The position numbers were made by a program, and so were the translations under genes. From Zootoca vivipara (lineage: Eukaryota): a stretch of 64,000 bases of DNA. The notes below the pieces were generated by a model. That model had not been told where the DNA came from. It was given only the letters and a program-made list of their open reading frames with translations, and made no database searches. Shown here in pieces: positions 34,533 to 53,350 of this stretch. How positions within the stretch are numbered: the first letter of the stretch is position 1; every line of letters begins with the position of its first letter. The stretch lies in contig NC_083288.1 in NCBI RefSeq assembly GCF_963506605.1, forward strand, positions 30,132,001 to 30,196,000, given 5' to 3'.

Positions 34533-35644
34533 GTTTATAGCATGTTTGATTAATGGGTTCCATGCCAATTGGATCTTCCTGACTTTAACTCAGCAACAGT
34601 AAAAGCAGTCTGTGGGTTAGCTGGCTATGGGGTTGTTCATAACCAATGATAAAATGCATTTCATTGATCTTTTGTTCTTCTTTCAAATTTCTATATGAAT
34701 CCTCATATTTACTTTGATTTGTGCATTAGAAAAAAAATTATGGCAAATGATTGATGGGCACGATGATAGTAGCCACAAATGTTGGGTTCGTGGAAGTTTA
34801 TTGTATGGCTTTAGGGGGGGAGTGAAAATAAACTTCCATATCTACCATGACATTTACATAAAAATTCTGAAACAATATCAGCGGGCACATGTTTACCCAG
34901 CATTAACAAAGCATGAGGCATTATAAAGGTTTCCAAAGACATTTTCAATTTAATAGGAGGGGACAAAGCAGCTTATTTCTGTCATATTTCAGTTTTGCTG
35001 ACATTTAATCATAGGTATGCCCTACCCCATTTTTTTTTCTGAAACAGTGCAATATTTATATTTATATTTACATCCCATCCATGTGTCTGGGTTTCCCCAG
35101 CCACTTCTGTCTTTAAAAGACAGAATATACAGACTACAAATAATCCAATAAATCAATAGAAAACAGCAGCAGCAGCAGCAGCAACAACAACAACAACCAG
35201 TTTATAGTTATACCCAAGTTAAAATAACCACCAACCCCAAAATTTAATCAACTCCAATCCAGCAAAAACAAAACAGAGGAACCAAAATTAAAACAATAAA
35301 GTTTGAATATAAATTGTATGGATTTTGTATGCAATTTGTTGCATTTTCTCTTTTAACTAAAAGCTGTCCTAAGATCTTGAACACTCTAACAAAAATAAAA
35401 CAAAAAACAGCCTCCATGCAGCAAGTCTTTAGTTAGTTGGTGATTGTGTGCATTGAAGTAAGATTCAATGTTCTGTTTTCTGAAAGAGGAATCTTACAAA
35501 AACTACTTTATCAGAAATGTTGGTCCCAGATTTCTTATATCATTCTTCTTCTTTCACACTCTTTATTGTGTCCAGCCTCTTATGCACAATCCTTAGTAAC
35601 ATCACACTTTTGTGGGGGATTTCTGGTTACAGTTCCATGGCACA

Positions 35645-36613
35645 ATGATCCTGAATGGAAAAGAAAATATCTCGGGAACAGCCGTGACAGAGTTTGTGTT
35701 GCTTGGCTTCTCTAGTCTTCAGGGGATGCAGCTGCCACTGTTCTGCATCTTTCTGGTCATGTATACATTATCATTATTTGGCAATGCTCTGGTCATCCTC
35801 ATAATCCGCCTTGACTTCCGCCTTCACAGCCCCATGTACTATTTTCTGAGCAAACTCTCCTGGCTGGAGATTATCATCACCACCACAGTCACACCGAAGA
35901 TGCTAAGCCTTCTCATCACAAAGAAAAAAACCATCTCCTTTTTTGGATGTGCTGTCCAGATAACACTGTACTTTCTTTGTGGGACCACAGAAGTTCTCCT
36001 GCTTGGGGCCATGTCTGTGGATCGCTACTTAGCCATCTGTAACCCACTGCGCTACACGGCCATAATGAGTAGCCAGGTCTGCATGCTGATGGTGCTCTTC
36101 TGTTGGTTTGGAGGCTTCATTTGTATAGCTCTTGGTCTGATCTTCAAGTCGGGACTACCTTACTGTGGCCCCAATGTCATTGATCATTTCTTCTGCGACA
36201 CAGCCCCGTTGACACTGTTAATCTGTGCAGACACCACCCTGGTTGAAAATATAGAATTTGCCTCTTCTTGTTTTACACTCCTGAGCTCCGTCTCTGTGAC
36301 AGCTGTCTCCTACCTCTGCATCATTGTTACTGTGATCAGGATGCCCTCAGCCCAAGGTAGGAGGAAAGCCTTCAGCACCTGCAGCTCTCATATCACTGTG
36401 GCCTCCCTCTATTATGGCAGCTCCATATTCATCTATGTCAGGCCAGCTGGAAACTCTTCTATGGATTTTAATAAGGCGGCCACTGTTCTTAACACTGTGG
36501 TTACTCCTTTACTTAATCCAATTATCTATAGCTTTAGAAATAAAGTGGTCAAGGATGTGCTGAAAGATGCAGTGAAGAAAATTGGTGCAATATTCAGGAA
36601 AACAGTTGATTAA
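35645..36613 (+). CDS. Olfactory receptor, family 6-like (OR6-b), 322 aa, intact
   Basis: Close paralog of OR6-a (MILNGKENISG... KAFSTCSSH, PLLNPIIYSFRN). True ATG is at 35645; the track start at 35612 is GTG. Confidence 0.95.
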   Translation: MILNGKENISGTAVTEFVLLGFSSLQGMQLPLFCIFLVMYTLSLFGNALVILIIRLDFRLHSPMYYFLSKLSWLEIIITTTVTPKMLSLLITKKKTISFFGCAVQITLYFLCGTTEVLLLGAMSVDRYLAICNPLRYTAIMSSQVCMLMVLFCWFGGFICIALGLIFKSGLPYCGPNVIDHFFCDTAPLTLLICADTTLVENIEFASSCFTLLSSVSVTAVSYLCIIVTVIRMPSAQGRRKAFSTCSSHITVASLYYGSSIFIYVRPAGNSSMDFNKAATVLNTVVTPLLNPIIYSFRNKVVKDVLKDAVKKIGAIFRKTVD

Positions 36614-39010: not shown

Positions 39011-40005
39011 TCAATTCAATTTAAATGAAATTTAAATGAATGAATTTAAATGAAAAAGTATTAAACCGCTGAAGAAATCTATGAATTTCTCAGACCTCAC
39101 CAGTTCTGGGCACCACAGTTCAAGAAGGATACTGACAAGCTGGAACGTGTCCAGAGGAGGGCAACCAAAATGGTCAAAGGCCTGGAAACGATGCCTTATG
39201 AGGAACGGCTTAGGGAGCTGGGTATGTTTAGCCTGGAGAAGAGAAAGTTAAGGGGAGATATGATAGCCATGTTCAAATATATAAAAGGATGCCATATAGA
39301 GGAGGGAGAAAGGTTGTTTTCTGCTGCTCCAGAGAAGCAGACACGGAGCAATGGATTCAAACTACAAGAAAGAAGATTCCACCTAAACATTAGGAAGAAC
39401 TTCCTGATAGTAAGAGCTGTTGGACAGTGGACTTTGCTGCCAAGGAGTGTGGTGGAGTCTCCTCCTTTGGAGGTCTTTAAGCGGAGGCTTGACAGCCATC
39501 TGTCAGGAATGCTTTGATGGTGTTTCCTGCTTGGCAGGGGGTTGGACTGGATGGCCCTCGTGGTCTCTTCCAACTCTATGATTCTATGATTCTATGGGTT
39601 GAATGTTGGTGGGTTTCATCCTGCTTCAGTTCCCTCCCTCCTTTGTTCTGGTTTCTTTCTCCTTTATGCACTCATCTCACTCATCTCCCCTCCTGAAGCC
39701 ATATATATATGACAATGAAATATATTTTATTCAAATTCTGTTAAATGATGACAAAAATGATATGCAAAAAGTGTGAAAAAACAGTTCATTATTGGTAGCT
39801 CTGCTTCTTTGTAAAATGTTATGTGATTTCTGGGTAGGAGGATGAGTTATAGTCACTAACTAAATGTCAGGAATGCTTCTGTCACAAAACATGTGATGGA
39901 CATTGCAACATGACCCACTAATAGCTGACATTCACAGATTTCTTCAGGGGTTTCATACTTTTTCATTTAAATTTATTCATTTAAATTTCATTTAAATTAC
40001 ATTGA
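39011..40005. repeat. Inverted repeat pair of about 75 bp (39011-39086 and 39930-40005)
   Basis: Reverse-complement alignment by eye, about 6 mismatches. Confidence 0.8.
39090..39596 (+). mobile_element. CR1 LINE 3' fragment, same subfamily as 19805-20816
   Basis: MVKGLETMPYEERLRELGMFSLEKR...; (TTCTATGA)n tail. Confidence 0.93.
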
Positions 40006-40596
40006 CTCTCATCAAATTTCTTTTTTTATAATGTGTATGCAAACATAGGGGAAGGGAAAAAGAAACCCATTTAAAATCTAAAATTTAAAACTACTTTTAA
40101 AAATAGTTCTAAATCCATTCCATTTTGCCTTTATATACAGGAAGGAAGAATGAGGACAAACACACACGGCCCACTTCAGATTTCCTTATTGGAGCCAAAC
40201 ATTAATGTATTATTAGCCTATTTTAGTTCATTTTGATGATATTTGGTCTCCTAGCTCCCTTGAGAGTAGTGAGGCTCCAACATTATTATCTACAACCTCA
40301 AATATTTTCTGCATTCATTCAAAGCACCAAATTATTTGTTTTAGCCCTGTGGGATTAATTAATATACCCCAACTTCATTACTATTCTATCAGGACAGTTA
40401 GTTCATTAAAATGCATTGTATTAAGATCCTACAGAACTCTCCTAACAAAAAAAGAAGCTTATTTTGAAACCTGATGATCATCAATAGAAAATGACCAAAA
40501 GCAACTCAGCTGATATTAACAATAAGAATATTCCACCAAACCTAATTTAAACATATAGATCAATATTGATATTTCATAAGTGAAAATGAAGCCTAT

Positions 40597-41731
40597 TGTC
40601 ACAGTGGCCTGGGTGGGCTACTTCAGAGTAACGACTCCACACAGCTCTGCATTTTATCTTTTTATTGGTGCTGTGTATTTACAGTGCTAAAGGCAGTGCT
40701 ATTTACAGAGATACATCTTATCCGCTTTCTTCAGTACCTCCGAATGGAGTTTGGCGCGTTTTTCTCCAACATAACAACTTGGGGAGACCCAGCCTCTTCC
40801 CCCGACGTTTCTTGCGCAATTCCGGAGTCGGTGGGATTGGCCTTCCCCCCTTGCTCCCCCCTTCCTGTCCCACCTTGGGCAATGGCTCTGCTACCTTGCC
40901 TGAGCCTCGGACACCACTTCCTGCTTCTCTACTTGAGTCGGAACTCTCCCTGCTTTCCCCAGCGCTCGGAGATGGGCTGGAACTCAAGATGGGAGGGACC
41001 TCCCGATATCCCTTGTCCCTCACATCCACCCCCCTCCCAAGCCCTCCTTCTCCCCTCCCTAGGGGCCCCGAGGGTGCCGGGGACGACTGAAAACCTAAAA
41101 ACTCCGTGTTGTCGGAGCCCGTGGGTGTGAACACCTCCCCCCAATCCAGTGAGCTTCCTCCTTCCCCCTGAGAAGACGGAAAGCCCAAAAATTCCGTGGC
41201 ATCAGAGCTGGTGGGAGTAAAAATATGCTGCCAGTCCTCCCCTGCCTCTGACGTGGTGGACCTCGGAGAAGCCCACACCTCTTCCTCAGGATCCTCAAAC
41301 TCCGCTTCCCACCTCCATGGAGAACTGCTCTCTGCGACCTCTTCCTCCGGCCCTTCCCCCTCTCCATCCCTTTCCATGTGCCAGGGCTTGGGCCTGTGGG
41401 GGAAGAGGGCGTGGAATTCTTCCACTAAGAATTCCTCCTGTATTTCCGTGGCTGCTACCCATTCATTCTGGGACGGCGGGGCATCGTCCCACGCCATGAG
41501 GTACTCCAGGCCCCCCACCCCTCTTCGTGAATCAAGGATGGACGTGGCTTCATTGAGTTGCTCCCCCCTTCCTGTCCCACCTTGGGCAATGGCTCTGCTA
41601 CCTTGCCTGAGCCTCGGACACCACTTCCTGCTTCTCCACTTGAGTCGGAACTCTCCCTGCTTTCCCCAGCGCTCGGAGATGGGCTGGAACTCAAGATGGG
41701 AGGGACCTCCCGATATCCCTTGTCCCTCACA
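40597..41731 (-). mobile_element. Chromoviral Gypsy LTR retrotransposon with a large internal deletion
   Basis: 3' LTR 41024-40597 (TGTGA...TGACA, AATAAA about 40661), polypurine tract (PPT) 41025-41038, integrase chromodomain about 41385-41550, partial 5' LTR 41731-41558 (1 mismatch in 174 bp), 5-bp TSD CCTAT (40592-40596 and 41732-41736). Confidence 0.92.
40718..41557 (-). CDS. Remnant pol C-terminus: chromodomain, acidic repeat tail and LTR-encoded extension
   Basis: ILDSRRGVGGLEYLMAWDDAPPSQNEWVAATEI...EFHALFPHRP, then DW..FTPT.SD.TEFLGF twice; the frame stays open through the PPT into the LTR. Confidence 0.75.
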   Translation of the reverse strand, partial: LNEATSILDSRRGVGGLEYLMAWDDAPPSQNEWVAATEIQEEFLVEEFHALFPHRPKPWHMERDGEGEGPEEEVAESSSPWRWEAEFEDPEEEVWASPRSTTSEAGEDWQHIFTPTSSDATEFLGFPSSQGEGGSSLDWGEVFTPTGSDNTEFLGFQSSPAPSGPLGRGEGGLGRGVDVRDKGYREVPPILSSSPSPSAGESRESSDSSREAGSGVRGSGKVAEPLPKVGQEGGSKGGRPIPPTPELRKKRRGKRLGLPKLLCWRKTRQTPFGGTEESG

Positions 41732-42193
41732 CCTATAATTTTCCCCAGCATTCATATTATTTAATGTCAGATCCACGTTGGCACAAGTAGTCTCTCATAT
41801 GTGAGTAACAGAATGAATGAGCCAATTACATGTATTATTTTTTCCCAATCTGCACTTTGGAAACAGAAGTTATTGCATTACCGAATTGGCCATTACCCCT
41901 TTGTCTAGTCGGGGGGGGGGGGGGCAAACAAAAATCCATTCCAAAAGAGAAATATAGTTGTGGTGTACTATGGGTTGGTGTAAGACAGCTGTACCTCTGA
42001 TAGCTTCTATTTATTTCTACACTCCAAAAGTGGAGACCAAACAACATCTGTAAATGAGTTCCTAAATCCTTGAGCACTGATCATCTGTTTTTAACACTCA
42101 ATGAATGAAATATATCAGCTTAGAATTCCAAACCAGTAAAGAAGAACTCACATCAATATCTCGGAAGAAATATATCACCCAAGCTACTAACTT

Positions 42194-43094
42194 CTACTTC
42201 ATTCTCCTTCCTAAGTACTTCCTGCTGTTCAGTTCAGTCCGCATGACGATTATATAACATTTAGGAGCAAAGATACAGCCCAATAAACCAGCACTAGAGG
42301 CTAAGATGGAGAAGATCTCCACAGCCACCATGTATTTTCCCTTTGTGCTCAGGTAGGTTGGCACAAAAGAGACCCACACACTGCAAAACACTAACATGCT
42401 AAAAGTGATGAACTTGGCTTCATTGAAAGTGCTTGGCAACTCCCTAGCAAGAAAAGCCACAGCAAAGCTGACAAGAGCCAGAAACCCCAGGTACCCAAGA
42501 ACAGAATAAAACATAGGGACAGACCCTTCATTACATTCAACCACAATTTCTTTAGCCAAAGTGTCCATGTCCAAATGTGGGAACGGAGGAGCAGTAAGGA
42601 GCCACACAGTACAAAGAGCTCCTTGAATGATGGTGCAGGAGAAAACAATAGAAGCTCCAGTCTTTTCCCCACCCAGTTCCTGATCCTGGATCCTGGCCTT
42701 GTGGCCATGAATGCCAAAATCACTGTGGTGGTTTTTGCCAACACGGAAGAAACAGCCACAGTGAAGACGATGCCAAAAGCTGTTTGCCTTAGGAGGCAGG
42801 TCACTTTCTGAGGTCTTCCAAAGAACAGCAAAGAGCAGAGGAAGCAAAGCAAAAGGGCGATGAGCAGAGTGTACGTGAGACCCCGATTGTTGGCTTTAAC
42901 AAGGGGAGTTTCCTTGTATTTAATGAATATTTTAAGCACGAAAGCAGTGATCACAGAAAATGAAAATGCCATGAAAACTAAAGTGATGCTCAAATTTTCA
43001 TCATGGGACAGAAAGTGTAACATCTTGGGGAGACATCCATCTTGGTCTTCATTAGGATACTGATCTTCTGGGCACATTATACAATTGTCCATAT
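42194..43094 (-). CDS. V2R-A exon 6 (7TM), frameshifted
   Basis: [13 protein letters not shown]...WVGKRL in one frame, then SIVFSC...[12 protein letters not shown]...PKCYII in another. Confidence 0.88.
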
Positions 43095-43349
43095 CTGGAG
43101 AGGAAAAGACATGATCACAACTCAGTCAATGGACATGGGCAAATGTCTGAACTATACAGAGTACTGGGTAAGCAATGTTCACAATCATGCAGAAAGAGAC
43201 TTCGACATGTACATATGCCTACAAAATTCCCATATCTATAAATAAAGTTTAGCACTGCAAGCTTTATCATCTAAATCCACACAAACTTTACAGAGCCACT
43301 GGTGCTGAGGGTGGAATCATGTTCATATGATAACATGGTTAACACTTGC

Positions 43350-47360: not shown

Positions 47361-47600
47361 ATTAGCCAGGGTCAGCCCATCTCGTTTTACCATCTGAAGC
47401 AAAATGAGCAAGTGGCGCCCAACCACATGGCCCACCAAAGCCTCATTTACTGGGGTCTTGCAGCAGTGGTAAAAGTGGGTATGGTGCCCAAAGGGCTGCT
47501 GCCCCATAGGATTCATCCTCCTGAGTTGGCTGCTTCAGGCCAGCCACGTATTACACATTTTCTCATCACTGTCAAAATCCTTTGCTTAATTAAAAATTAC

Positions 47601-48449
47601 CTGCCATGGTTGTGAGTTTGGAAGTTCTGCCACTGCTTTGTGCTTCAGGTTCAATGCATACATTGCATGTAAAGCATGGGCTAACACGTAGGCAGCATTG
47701 TATATACTGTAGCTTTGGGGAGTCATCCTCATTTCAAAAAATGGTCCTGGAAGGCTCTCCAGCTTTTCCTGACCTGTGCAAGTTCCATTGCTCTCTACAG
47801 GTTCCTGGGAATCTGAAAGTAAGCAGTCAAAGGCCTGCTGCCAGAAGTCCTTGATAAAACTGTCTCCACTGAGTGAGTAAGGATTTAAAGGCTGAAGGAA
47901 ATGTTGAAATTCCTCTATCTGATTGGTGTGAACTGCAAAAGACAGGGCTCCCCGAAAGACTTCTATACTCCAGTTTCTGTTAAACTGTAGTGCTGGGAAG
48001 TCCCATTGAGCTGTCAAGATCCATACTCTTCCTAGAGATGTCTCTACCATATTTACTGTTTGTATTTGATACAGTAAGAATATAAAACGAAATGTAGCTG
48101 CAGTTTCTGCAAATACAATCACTGCTTTTGCTCTGTGGTCTTTAACAAAGCAGGCTGTATCTCCTGTTATATGGTACTCATTAAGCAAGTTGGAAAAGTC
48201 TGTCGGGGATGGCATTATGTCAGTGAAAGCCAAACAGATGCCATTCTGGGAAAGCTTTGGAACCAAGGTCTGCACAAAATTCTCTCCTTTATCATTGCCT
48301 GATGTAACGATCCCAACCCATGTCCAGTGGAAATGCAGAAGTAATTGGACAATCAAATGGTACTGATTCTCTTCATTGGGAACCACACGGTAGAGGAAAG
48401 GGAACTGGGTTTTCATACTCTGAGAAGGACCAAATAAAAAATAAGAGAC
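47601..48449 (-). CDS. V2R-A exon 3 (Venus flytrap domain)
   Basis: [11 protein letters not shown]...HFHWTWVG...SYSIYNAAYVLAHALHAM; 849 bp; AG/GT boundaries. Confidence 0.9.
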
Positions 48450-51466: not shown

Positions 51467-51818
51467 TAAAGGTAAAGGTAAAGGGACCCCTGACCATTAG
51501 GTCCAGTCGTGACCAACTCTGGGGTTGCGCGCTCATCTCGCATTATTGGCCGAGGGAGCCGGCGTATAGCTTCCAGGTCATGTGGCCAGCATTACAAAGC
51601 CGCTTCTGGCAAACCAGAGCAGCACATGGAAACGCCGTTTACCTTCCCGCTGTAGCGGTTCCTATTTATCTACTTGCATTTTGATGTGCTTTCGAACTGC
51701 TAGGTTGGCAGGAGCTGGGACCAAGCAACGGGAGCTCACCCCGTCACAGGGATTCGAACCGCCGACCTTCTGATCAGCGAGCCCTAGGCTCAGTGGTTTA
51801 ACCACAGCGCCACCTGGG
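51467..51818 (-). mobile_element. Sauria SINE (V2R-A intron 1)
   Basis: (ACCTTT)n tail and tRNA-like head. Confidence 0.93.
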
Positions 51819-52930: not shown

Positions 52931-53280
52931 GGGACCCAGGTGGCGCTGTTGGTTAAACCACTGAACCTAGGGCTTGTTGATCAGAAGGTCTGCGGTTCGA
53001 ATCCCTGTGACGGGGTGAGCTCCCATTGCTTGGTCCCAGCTCCTGCTAACCTAGCAGTTTGAAAGCACGTCAAAATGCAAGTAGATAAATAGGAACCGCT
53101 ACAGTGGGAAGGTAAATAGCATTTCCATGTGCTGCTCTGGTTTGCCAGAAGCGGCTTTGTCATGCTGGCCACATGACCTGGAAGCTATATGCTGGCTCCC
53201 TCGGCCAATAATGCGAGATGAGCGCGCAACCCCAGAGTCGGTCACAACTGGACCTAATGGTCAGGGGTCCCTTTACCTTT
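52931..53280 (+). mobile_element. Sauria SINE, full length
   Basis: GGGACCCAGGTGGCGCTG...CCCTTTACCTTT; TSD tagtatgg. Confidence 0.93.
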
Positions 53281-53350
53281 AGTATGGACAATGGTGAAGC
53301 TAGAAGACTCTCAGATGACCCAAGGAACCTAAAGCAGCTGTGCAAAAAAT

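Follow-up and report, generated by a model that had tools for sequence, protein, structure and literature searches.

A lizard chromovirus clade with TIM-like FxGF repeats in its integrase tail and a chromodomain without the aromatic cage

The integrase tail of a Gypsy/chromovirus lineage in lizards carries short repeats that resemble the TIMs of host proteins, the linear motifs that bind TFIIS-N-terminal-type domains (TNDs), and it carries them behind a chromodomain that lacks most of its aromatic cage. The tail motif is a real, selected feature, and from the sequences a targeting mechanism built on it is plausible. The repeats probably bind some TND. We also lean modestly toward a more specific reading, namely that they may be TIM mimics that dock onto the TND of HRP2 or LEDGF and tether integration to transcribed chromatin, replacing the reading of methylated H3K9. 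The repeats come from a 64,000-nucleotide stretch of the Zootoca vivipara genome (contig NC_083288.1, positions 30,132,001 to 30,196,000), which we call the window. Positions below are those of the window unless a contig is named.

A truncated chromovirus copy with two TIM-like repeats

The repeats lie in an internally deleted Gypsy/chromovirus copy of 1,135 nt (40597-41731, minus strand, as are all of its features) with the marks of a chromovirus: LTRs of the form TG...CA, a short target-site duplication, and a polypurine tract (PPT). The 5-bp duplication, ATAGG, is at 41732-41736 on the 5' side and at 40592-40596 on the 3' side. The 3' LTR is complete (428 nt, TG...CA, 40597-41024), and the PPT beside it (41025-41047) is read through in frame. 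All that is left of the 5' LTR is a stump of 174 nt (41558-41731) that starts with TG and is 99% identical to the 3' LTR. This stump and the integrase tail meet at an 8-nt microhomology common to the LTR and the internal sequence; therefore, gag, PR, RT, RH, and the integrase core were removed from this copy by internal deletion. The stump is fused to the tail and the core is absent. We do not regard this copy as functional.

An open frame (41794-40718) spans the chromodomain (41384-41557) and both repeats. The integrase frame uses the first ~300 nt (~100 codons) of the 3' LTR, with its stop at 40720-40718, and within the LTR it encodes a conserved basic block that ends in LLCWR and appears NLS-like (40754-40837). 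The copy lies 463 nt beyond the stop codon of a V2R-type receptor (labeled from its open reading frame), and no recognisable gene contains it. From open reading frames alone, we also see an olfactory-receptor-like frame, V2R-like receptor exons, and a LINE reverse-transcriptase-like fragment around the element (35600-36613, plus; 42194-43125, minus; 47586-48449, minus; and 39065-39517, plus). An inverted repeat of 332 nt (51473-51804 and 52950-53281, 95% complementary, 1,145 nt apart) could be a DNA transposon or a pair of SINE copies in opposite orientations.

A preliminary description, made from the letters alone, had reported two FLGF repeats with a 30-residue period, and its positions and translation are exact: the FLGF cores are at 41191-41180 and 41101-41090, in the same open frame and with a spacing of 30 codons. 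Repeat A reads WQHIF-TPTSSDATE-FLGF (41180-41233) and repeat B reads WGEVF-TPTGSDNTE-FLGF (41090-41143). Over 19 codons, 14 residues are identical and 5 differ. Nine of the 14 identical residues use different synonymous codons, so the earlier remark that many differences between the repeats are synonymous also holds. A possible third, eroded repeat (41273-41317), with WRWEAEF and an acidic run but without FxGF, was recognised by eye because the loci L032-L034 elsewhere in the genome have a full FxGF repeat that starts much like it.

Host TIMs consist of a helix with F/V/L/I anchors, an acidic linker of 8-16 residues that often contains phosphorylated S/T, and an optional FxGF (PMC9987994). Each window repeat has a hydrophobic, helix-type anchor that ends in Phe, a 9-residue D/E/S/T linker, and FxGF. 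The preliminary description had called the motifs acidic. The FLGF cores are as described, but the S/T-rich linkers, whose length falls within the host range, have just a modest acidic character (2 D/E and 4-5 S/T per 9 residues; relatives have more acidic linkers). Neither repeat (0 of 2) matches the strict IBM consensus D/E-x-E-x-F-x-G-F (D/ExExFxGF in the available text of PMC8022399), as each has Thr rather than Glu at -2. A TIM-like pattern (written after the motifs had been seen) matches the 221-aa tail twice; when we shuffled the tail 20,000 times, the pattern appeared once in 14 shuffles and twice in none. AF2 predicts a disordered tail (pLDDT <60 beyond residue 60), with no helix at the repeats when the tail is modeled in isolation (pLDDT about 58).

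The host TIMs of the FxGF class (IWS1, JPO2, KMT2A, and POGZ, as well as JIL-1) share the anchor Phe, the D/E/S/T linker, the FxGF, and the disorder, and they often occur in tandem. For example, IWS1 in PDB chain 6emr has IADIF, 10 residues, and FTGF, as compared to F, 9 residues, and FxGF in the element; the POGZ anchor in chain 6emp is LHQLF; and Drosophila JIL-1 has DFxGF (available text of bioRxiv 10.1101/624023). Unlike these, the element's motif is encoded by a mobile element, and the window linker is less acidic and has Thr at -2. The resemblance in sequence is thus closer than the preliminary description recognised, because it includes the anchor Phe and the linker length. Three residues past its anchor Phe, IWS1 also has a Ser; the element's residue at that place is a nearly invariant Thr, which may be a CK2 site. 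Across 29 aligned repeats the anchor Phe is invariant (the pattern that selected them itself required FxGF and an upstream hydrophobic residue). When a profile of these 29 repeats was run against the PDB, none of the matches at E≤10 was a host TIM; such a search has low power for so short a motif. POGZ is a domesticated transposase, so its motif may have come from a transposon; our literature search found no paper on such an origin.

Family copies and selection on the tail

We searched the lizard genome (G000; 1.44 Gb in 48 contigs) at the DNA and protein levels and scored 40 matches from 1,233 and 150 from 3,012 candidates, respectively. In five copies (L015, L016, L025, L026, and L027), a single frame runs from the upstream pol into the tail, which confirms that the tail belongs to an integrase, as first described. 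The domain order in L025 is the end of RNase H (a weak RT_RNaseH match, E 0.21), Integrase_H2C2, rve, SH3_Tf2-1, and the chromodomain. In most copies the frame continues through the PPT and about 100 LTR codons to the conserved basic block. Older families in the genome have up to three repeats (L032, L034, and L042).

The entry of the frame into the 3' LTR, by 100-200 codons, is also seen in the homologous proteins P0003, P0004, P0005, P0008, P0010, and P0168, besides the window (40718-41024, minus strand). The LTR-encoded end is an Arg/Lys-rich, NLS-like block with an L-L-C-W-like motif, and it is under purifying selection; the ends of P0003, P0004, P0005, and P0008 are similar to the window's block. 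In the CRM clade, too, the ORF enters the 3' LTR (available text of PMC3605345).

For the analysis of selection, we aligned the 77 of 91 loci that passed a coverage filter along with the window copy (78 copies in all); the 14 loci left out are mostly from older families. We counted alleles per codon column as shared if they were in three or more copies, and we ignored alleles in exactly two. Shared-allele pN/pS is 0.17 and 0.18 in the two repeats, 0.11 in the chromodomain, and 0.15 in the LTR-encoded basic block, as compared to 0.38 in the spacer, 0.61 in the linker, and 0.68 after the repeats. Singleton alleles in the two repeats have pN/pS of 1.79 and 0.83. The ten key columns (in each repeat, the W, the anchor F, and the F, G, and F of FxGF) have no shared non-synonymous alleles and 11 shared synonymous alleles (Fisher's exact test, p = 0.0002 versus singletons and p = 0.003 versus the flanking tail), where alleles are not independent events, the copies are related, and the copies were found through their likeness to the query. 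The repeats are under purifying selection.

The family is transcribed. In raw RNA reads from one study (about 6% of each run), the repeats were covered at 80% likeness in two of three runs, and on L113 they had hardly any coverage at 90% likeness. The reads run in both directions and have no splice joint. Just 4 of 1,889 were at least 99% alike to the window stretch, so nearly all come from other copies, and they speak to transcripts rather than to translation. No indexed holder of the family's sequence is recorded as RNA.

Some copies are arranged in tandem: L010, L011, and L013 (G000:C2:16.76-16.77 Mb) are 5,385 nt apart and apparently share LTRs, and similar pairs are found on C6, C13, and C15. 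The small contig C18 (9.3 Mb) has many family copies, including diverged ones, and is possibly a W-like, repeat-accumulating chromosome.

The chromodomain and the distribution of the motif

The Pfam Chromo model (PF00385) matches residues 4-49 of the translation of 41027-41557 with 26.6 bits (cut-off 25.1), and AF2 predicts that the chromodomain folds (pLDDT 83-92). The HP1-like, group I cage Y24/W45/Y48 is not there: the window has N/W/A. In the alignment to HP1, the Trp corresponds to W45 and the Ala to Y48; that alignment does not quite reach the Asn at the Y24 position, which was assigned via chromodomains with intact cages. Both alignments agree with the preliminary description that just the central Trp of the cage was kept. 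That description had also called the chromodomain degenerate, which is right for the loss of the cage and wrong if it means decay. We ruled out a decaying chromodomain because this cage-less domain is under strong purifying selection (the shared-allele pN/pS of 0.11, above), and hence it is repurposed rather than decaying.

Chromodomains in which the first and usually also the third cage aromatic are absent are known as group II, and the available text of PMC3350952 and PMC3605345 reports them from plants only. The clade's chromodomain fits this definition. According to the available text of PMC3350952, the function of cage-less chromodomains is little understood. Whereas the plant group II chromoviruses share the missing aromatics, the element's loss lies inside a cage-intact vertebrate lineage and is accompanied by FxGF repeats. 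This nesting suggests that the loss may be convergent with that in plants rather than inherited from the plant Tekay/Reina/Galadriel clades, on a tree that includes cage-intact lizard families and no plant group II rows.

We found 173 homologues and considered 120 of them. The best 12 of these 120 (41-59% identity, 10 of them named Podarcis muralis) all have FxGF in the tail after the chromodomain, with a Phe anchor before it. Among the remaining 108 of the 120, only P0024 has FxG[FY] after an anchor, and there it is out of context. The expectation that FLGF would be kept among relatives is thus borne out, both by these 12 and by the purifying selection. For instance, the relative P0180 and P0312 (P. 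muralis and P. lilfordi) have LQEIF-EETDSEEEE-FIGF. The strict D/ExExFxGF consensus is present in 7 of 18 proteins of the clade, and none of 289 controls has it. A looser, acidic TIM-like pattern is present in 14 of 18 (all except P0009, P0011, P0012, and P0168) versus 2 of 289 controls, both within reverse transcriptase. Diverged families of this one clade have one to three motifs per protein.

The retrotransposon lineage is likely that of lacertid lizards; the HDGFL2 exon of G000 is 97% identical to that of Zootoca vivipara, which makes a lacertid host likely. Two further searches, one by profile over 1.84 billion representatives (best 150 of 2,385) and one word-based (53 hits), added tail-motif proteins that, where named, were from only Podarcis muralis or P. 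lilfordi. That all named carriers are Podarcis does not imply a restriction to lacertids, as vertebrate retrotransposon proteins are sparse in sequence collections. One of the proteins, P0013, is a predicted Podarcis muralis V2R protein with a piece of the clade's integrase fused in, which is probably an artefact of gene modeling over an intronic insertion.

We built a tree from the integrase core and SH3 only, excluding the chromodomain and tail. It has 43 rows: 17 motif-bearing sequences, L106, and 25 others from the top hits, with no named reference elements. All 17 motif-bearing rows form a single clade (support 99/95). The third cage aromatic is missing in 17 of these 17 and the first in 16 of 17 (P0005 has Tyr). 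Their sister is the L106 family from G000, whose cage is Y-W-Y and whose acidic tail has no FxGF. Next on the tree is P0014, a Podarcis chromovirus that is also cage-intact and without FxGF; its C-terminus is RRSARLK, which resembles the nucleosome acidic-patch motif of HMGN. The sister family (L106-L109, e.g., G000:C8:83317000-83321000) has 30 copies at ≥99% protein identity. When P0180 was used as a query in G000, it mostly matched an unrelated repeat but did reach this sister family.

On the tree, the loss of the cage and the gain of the motif coincide, as a single, unreplicated event. We would give even chances to the idea that the lineage swapped its targeting in one step, in which it dropped H3K9-methyl reading and evolved and multiplied a linear motif that binds LEDGF/HRP2.

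Candidate partners, insertion sites, and rival readings

FxGF is essential for all known TND partners of LEDGF and HRP2 (PMC9987994), which points to these two proteins as the candidate partners rather than the domains of TFIIS, ELOA, or IWS1. Exons of HDGFL2 (HRP2) are present in the lizard genome; two loose searches of G000 did not retrieve PSIP1. LEDGF and HRP2 are integration tethers for lentiviral integrases (HIV-1), directing them into active gene bodies (PMC9987994), and HIV integrase competes with the FxGF site (available text of PMC8022399). The proposed host domain and the outcome would therefore be the same for the element as for HIV-1. HIV integrase, in contrast, binds via the folded dimer of its catalytic core rather than via a copied linear host motif in a C-terminal tail.

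Host-factor tethering through an integrase tail and the hijacking of LEDGF/HRP2 by lentiviruses are already known. The tails of Ty5 and MLV integrases engage Sir4 and BET, respectively, and those of Ty3 and Ty1 engage TFIIIB and a Pol III subunit; these are like our proposal in using the tail for targeting, while the partner and motif differ and no TIM has been described. The vestigial chromodomain of Ty3 works non-canonically by contacting TFIIIB and DNA (available text of bioRxiv 10.1101/2021.07.27.453949). The viral-mimicry section of a 2023 review of TNDs covers lentiviral integrases only (PMC9987994). In the literature within our scope, which excluded most subscription papers and primary motif papers and included the available text of PMC7835958 and PMC9976928, we found no retrotransposon whose integrase is described as having a TIM or FxGF motif; papers with both FxGF and retrotransposons were about host proteins.

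If the repeats do dock onto HRP2 or LEDGF, the W-xxx-F segment would fold as a helix and fill the first pocket of the TND, the Thr/Ser linker would touch a basic patch (probably more strongly if phosphorylated), and FxGF would occupy the second pocket. One to three motifs per subunit of a multimeric integrase could provide avidity. The reader's PWWP domain, which reads H3K36 methylation, would then set the insertion site, so that TND docking would take over site selection from the lost reading of methylated H3K9. The cage-less chromodomain may have been retained for another contact with DNA or protein, as in Ty3.

Such targeting might leave a bias in the insertion sites, so we compared 10-kb flanks of 35 young motif-family copies, 30 sister-family copies, and 35 evenly spaced positions (for the skew measure only, 2 + 1 flanks of pure satellite were dropped). 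In GC, CpG, interspersed repeats, and strand skew, the motif-family flanks were like the evenly spaced ones (p 0.92-1.0), and they did not differ from the sister-family flanks, all by proxies that are unvalidated for gene bodies and cannot identify them. The self-repeat fraction gave p = 0.032, uncorrected and one among many contrasts, and we do not count it as a finding. A 146-bp satellite fills the flanks of L135, L139, and L156: two of the 30 sister-family stretches, one of the 35 motif-family stretches, and none of the 35 at evenly spaced positions. Overall, the first description's idea of a TIM-mimic tether is supported in part: the TIM-like layout, the selection, and the coincidence with cage loss speak for it, but these weak proxies reveal no insertion bias.

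The TIM-like evidence, and the unbiased flanks as well, apply equally if the repeats are true TIM mimics, on LEDGF/HRP2 or another TND, whose benefit is to retain integrase on chromatin or in the nucleus, to shield it from degradation, or to titrate the readers. For example, JIL-1 is stabilised through FxGF-mediated binding to JASPer (available text of bioRxiv 10.1101/624023). We consider a benefit of this kind unlikely, however, in that the motif was gained along with the loss of a site-selecting cage and that LEDGF and HRP2 are proven tethers for lentiviral integrases (PMC9987994). A host partner with another fold, such as ATG8, adaptor ears, or transport factors, is quite unlikely. W-x-x-I/V after Asp resembles the ATG8-binding motif (LIR), and aromatic-acidic motifs also bind adaptor ears or transport factors. 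DWQHI and DWGEV do fit the LIR pattern, the Trp is nearly invariant among the aligned copies, and the window repeats miss the strict IBM consensus. Yet those motifs have no need of a downstream FxGF at a fixed spacing, which is the most constrained part here, and in relatives the Trp gives way to Phe or Leu, with the anchor F and the FxGF retained.

A motif that acts within the integrase, by packing against either the cage-less chromodomain or the LTR-encoded basic block and so regulating the enzyme, would account for the constraint on both of those regions and for the first repeat directly following the chromodomain helix in several families. It is hard to reconcile with the variation among families in the number of motifs (1-3) and in the distance from repeat to chromodomain (a few to about 50 residues), and AF2 of the whole tail has no such packing (pTM 0.29); we judge it very unlikely. 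We give almost no credence to the notion that the peptide is irrelevant and the repeats are due to chance or are conserved as a DNA or RNA signal near the PPT, which is 45-210 nt downstream of them. Constraint at the nucleotide level is largely refuted, as synonymous alleles are abundant while the key residues are fixed; the residues are also kept between families that are just 41-59% alike, and no shuffle of 20,000 had a double hit. Docking onto HRP2 or LEDGF remains the reading that we prefer.

To our knowledge, how vertebrate LTR retrotransposons choose their insertion sites is largely unknown. If our preferred reading is true, then a mobile element has copied the TIM itself and reached a LEDGF/HRP2 tether by a route independent of the lentiviruses, so that HIV's cofactor would have been reached by true motif mimicry. 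The clade would also supply a large set of natural TIM variants with which to work out the specificity of TNDs. A built-in control for gene-body as opposed to heterochromatin targeting is offered by the sister family, which kept its cage and also has young copies in this genome: two sister families, both young in one genome and differing in cage and motif, make the idea directly testable.
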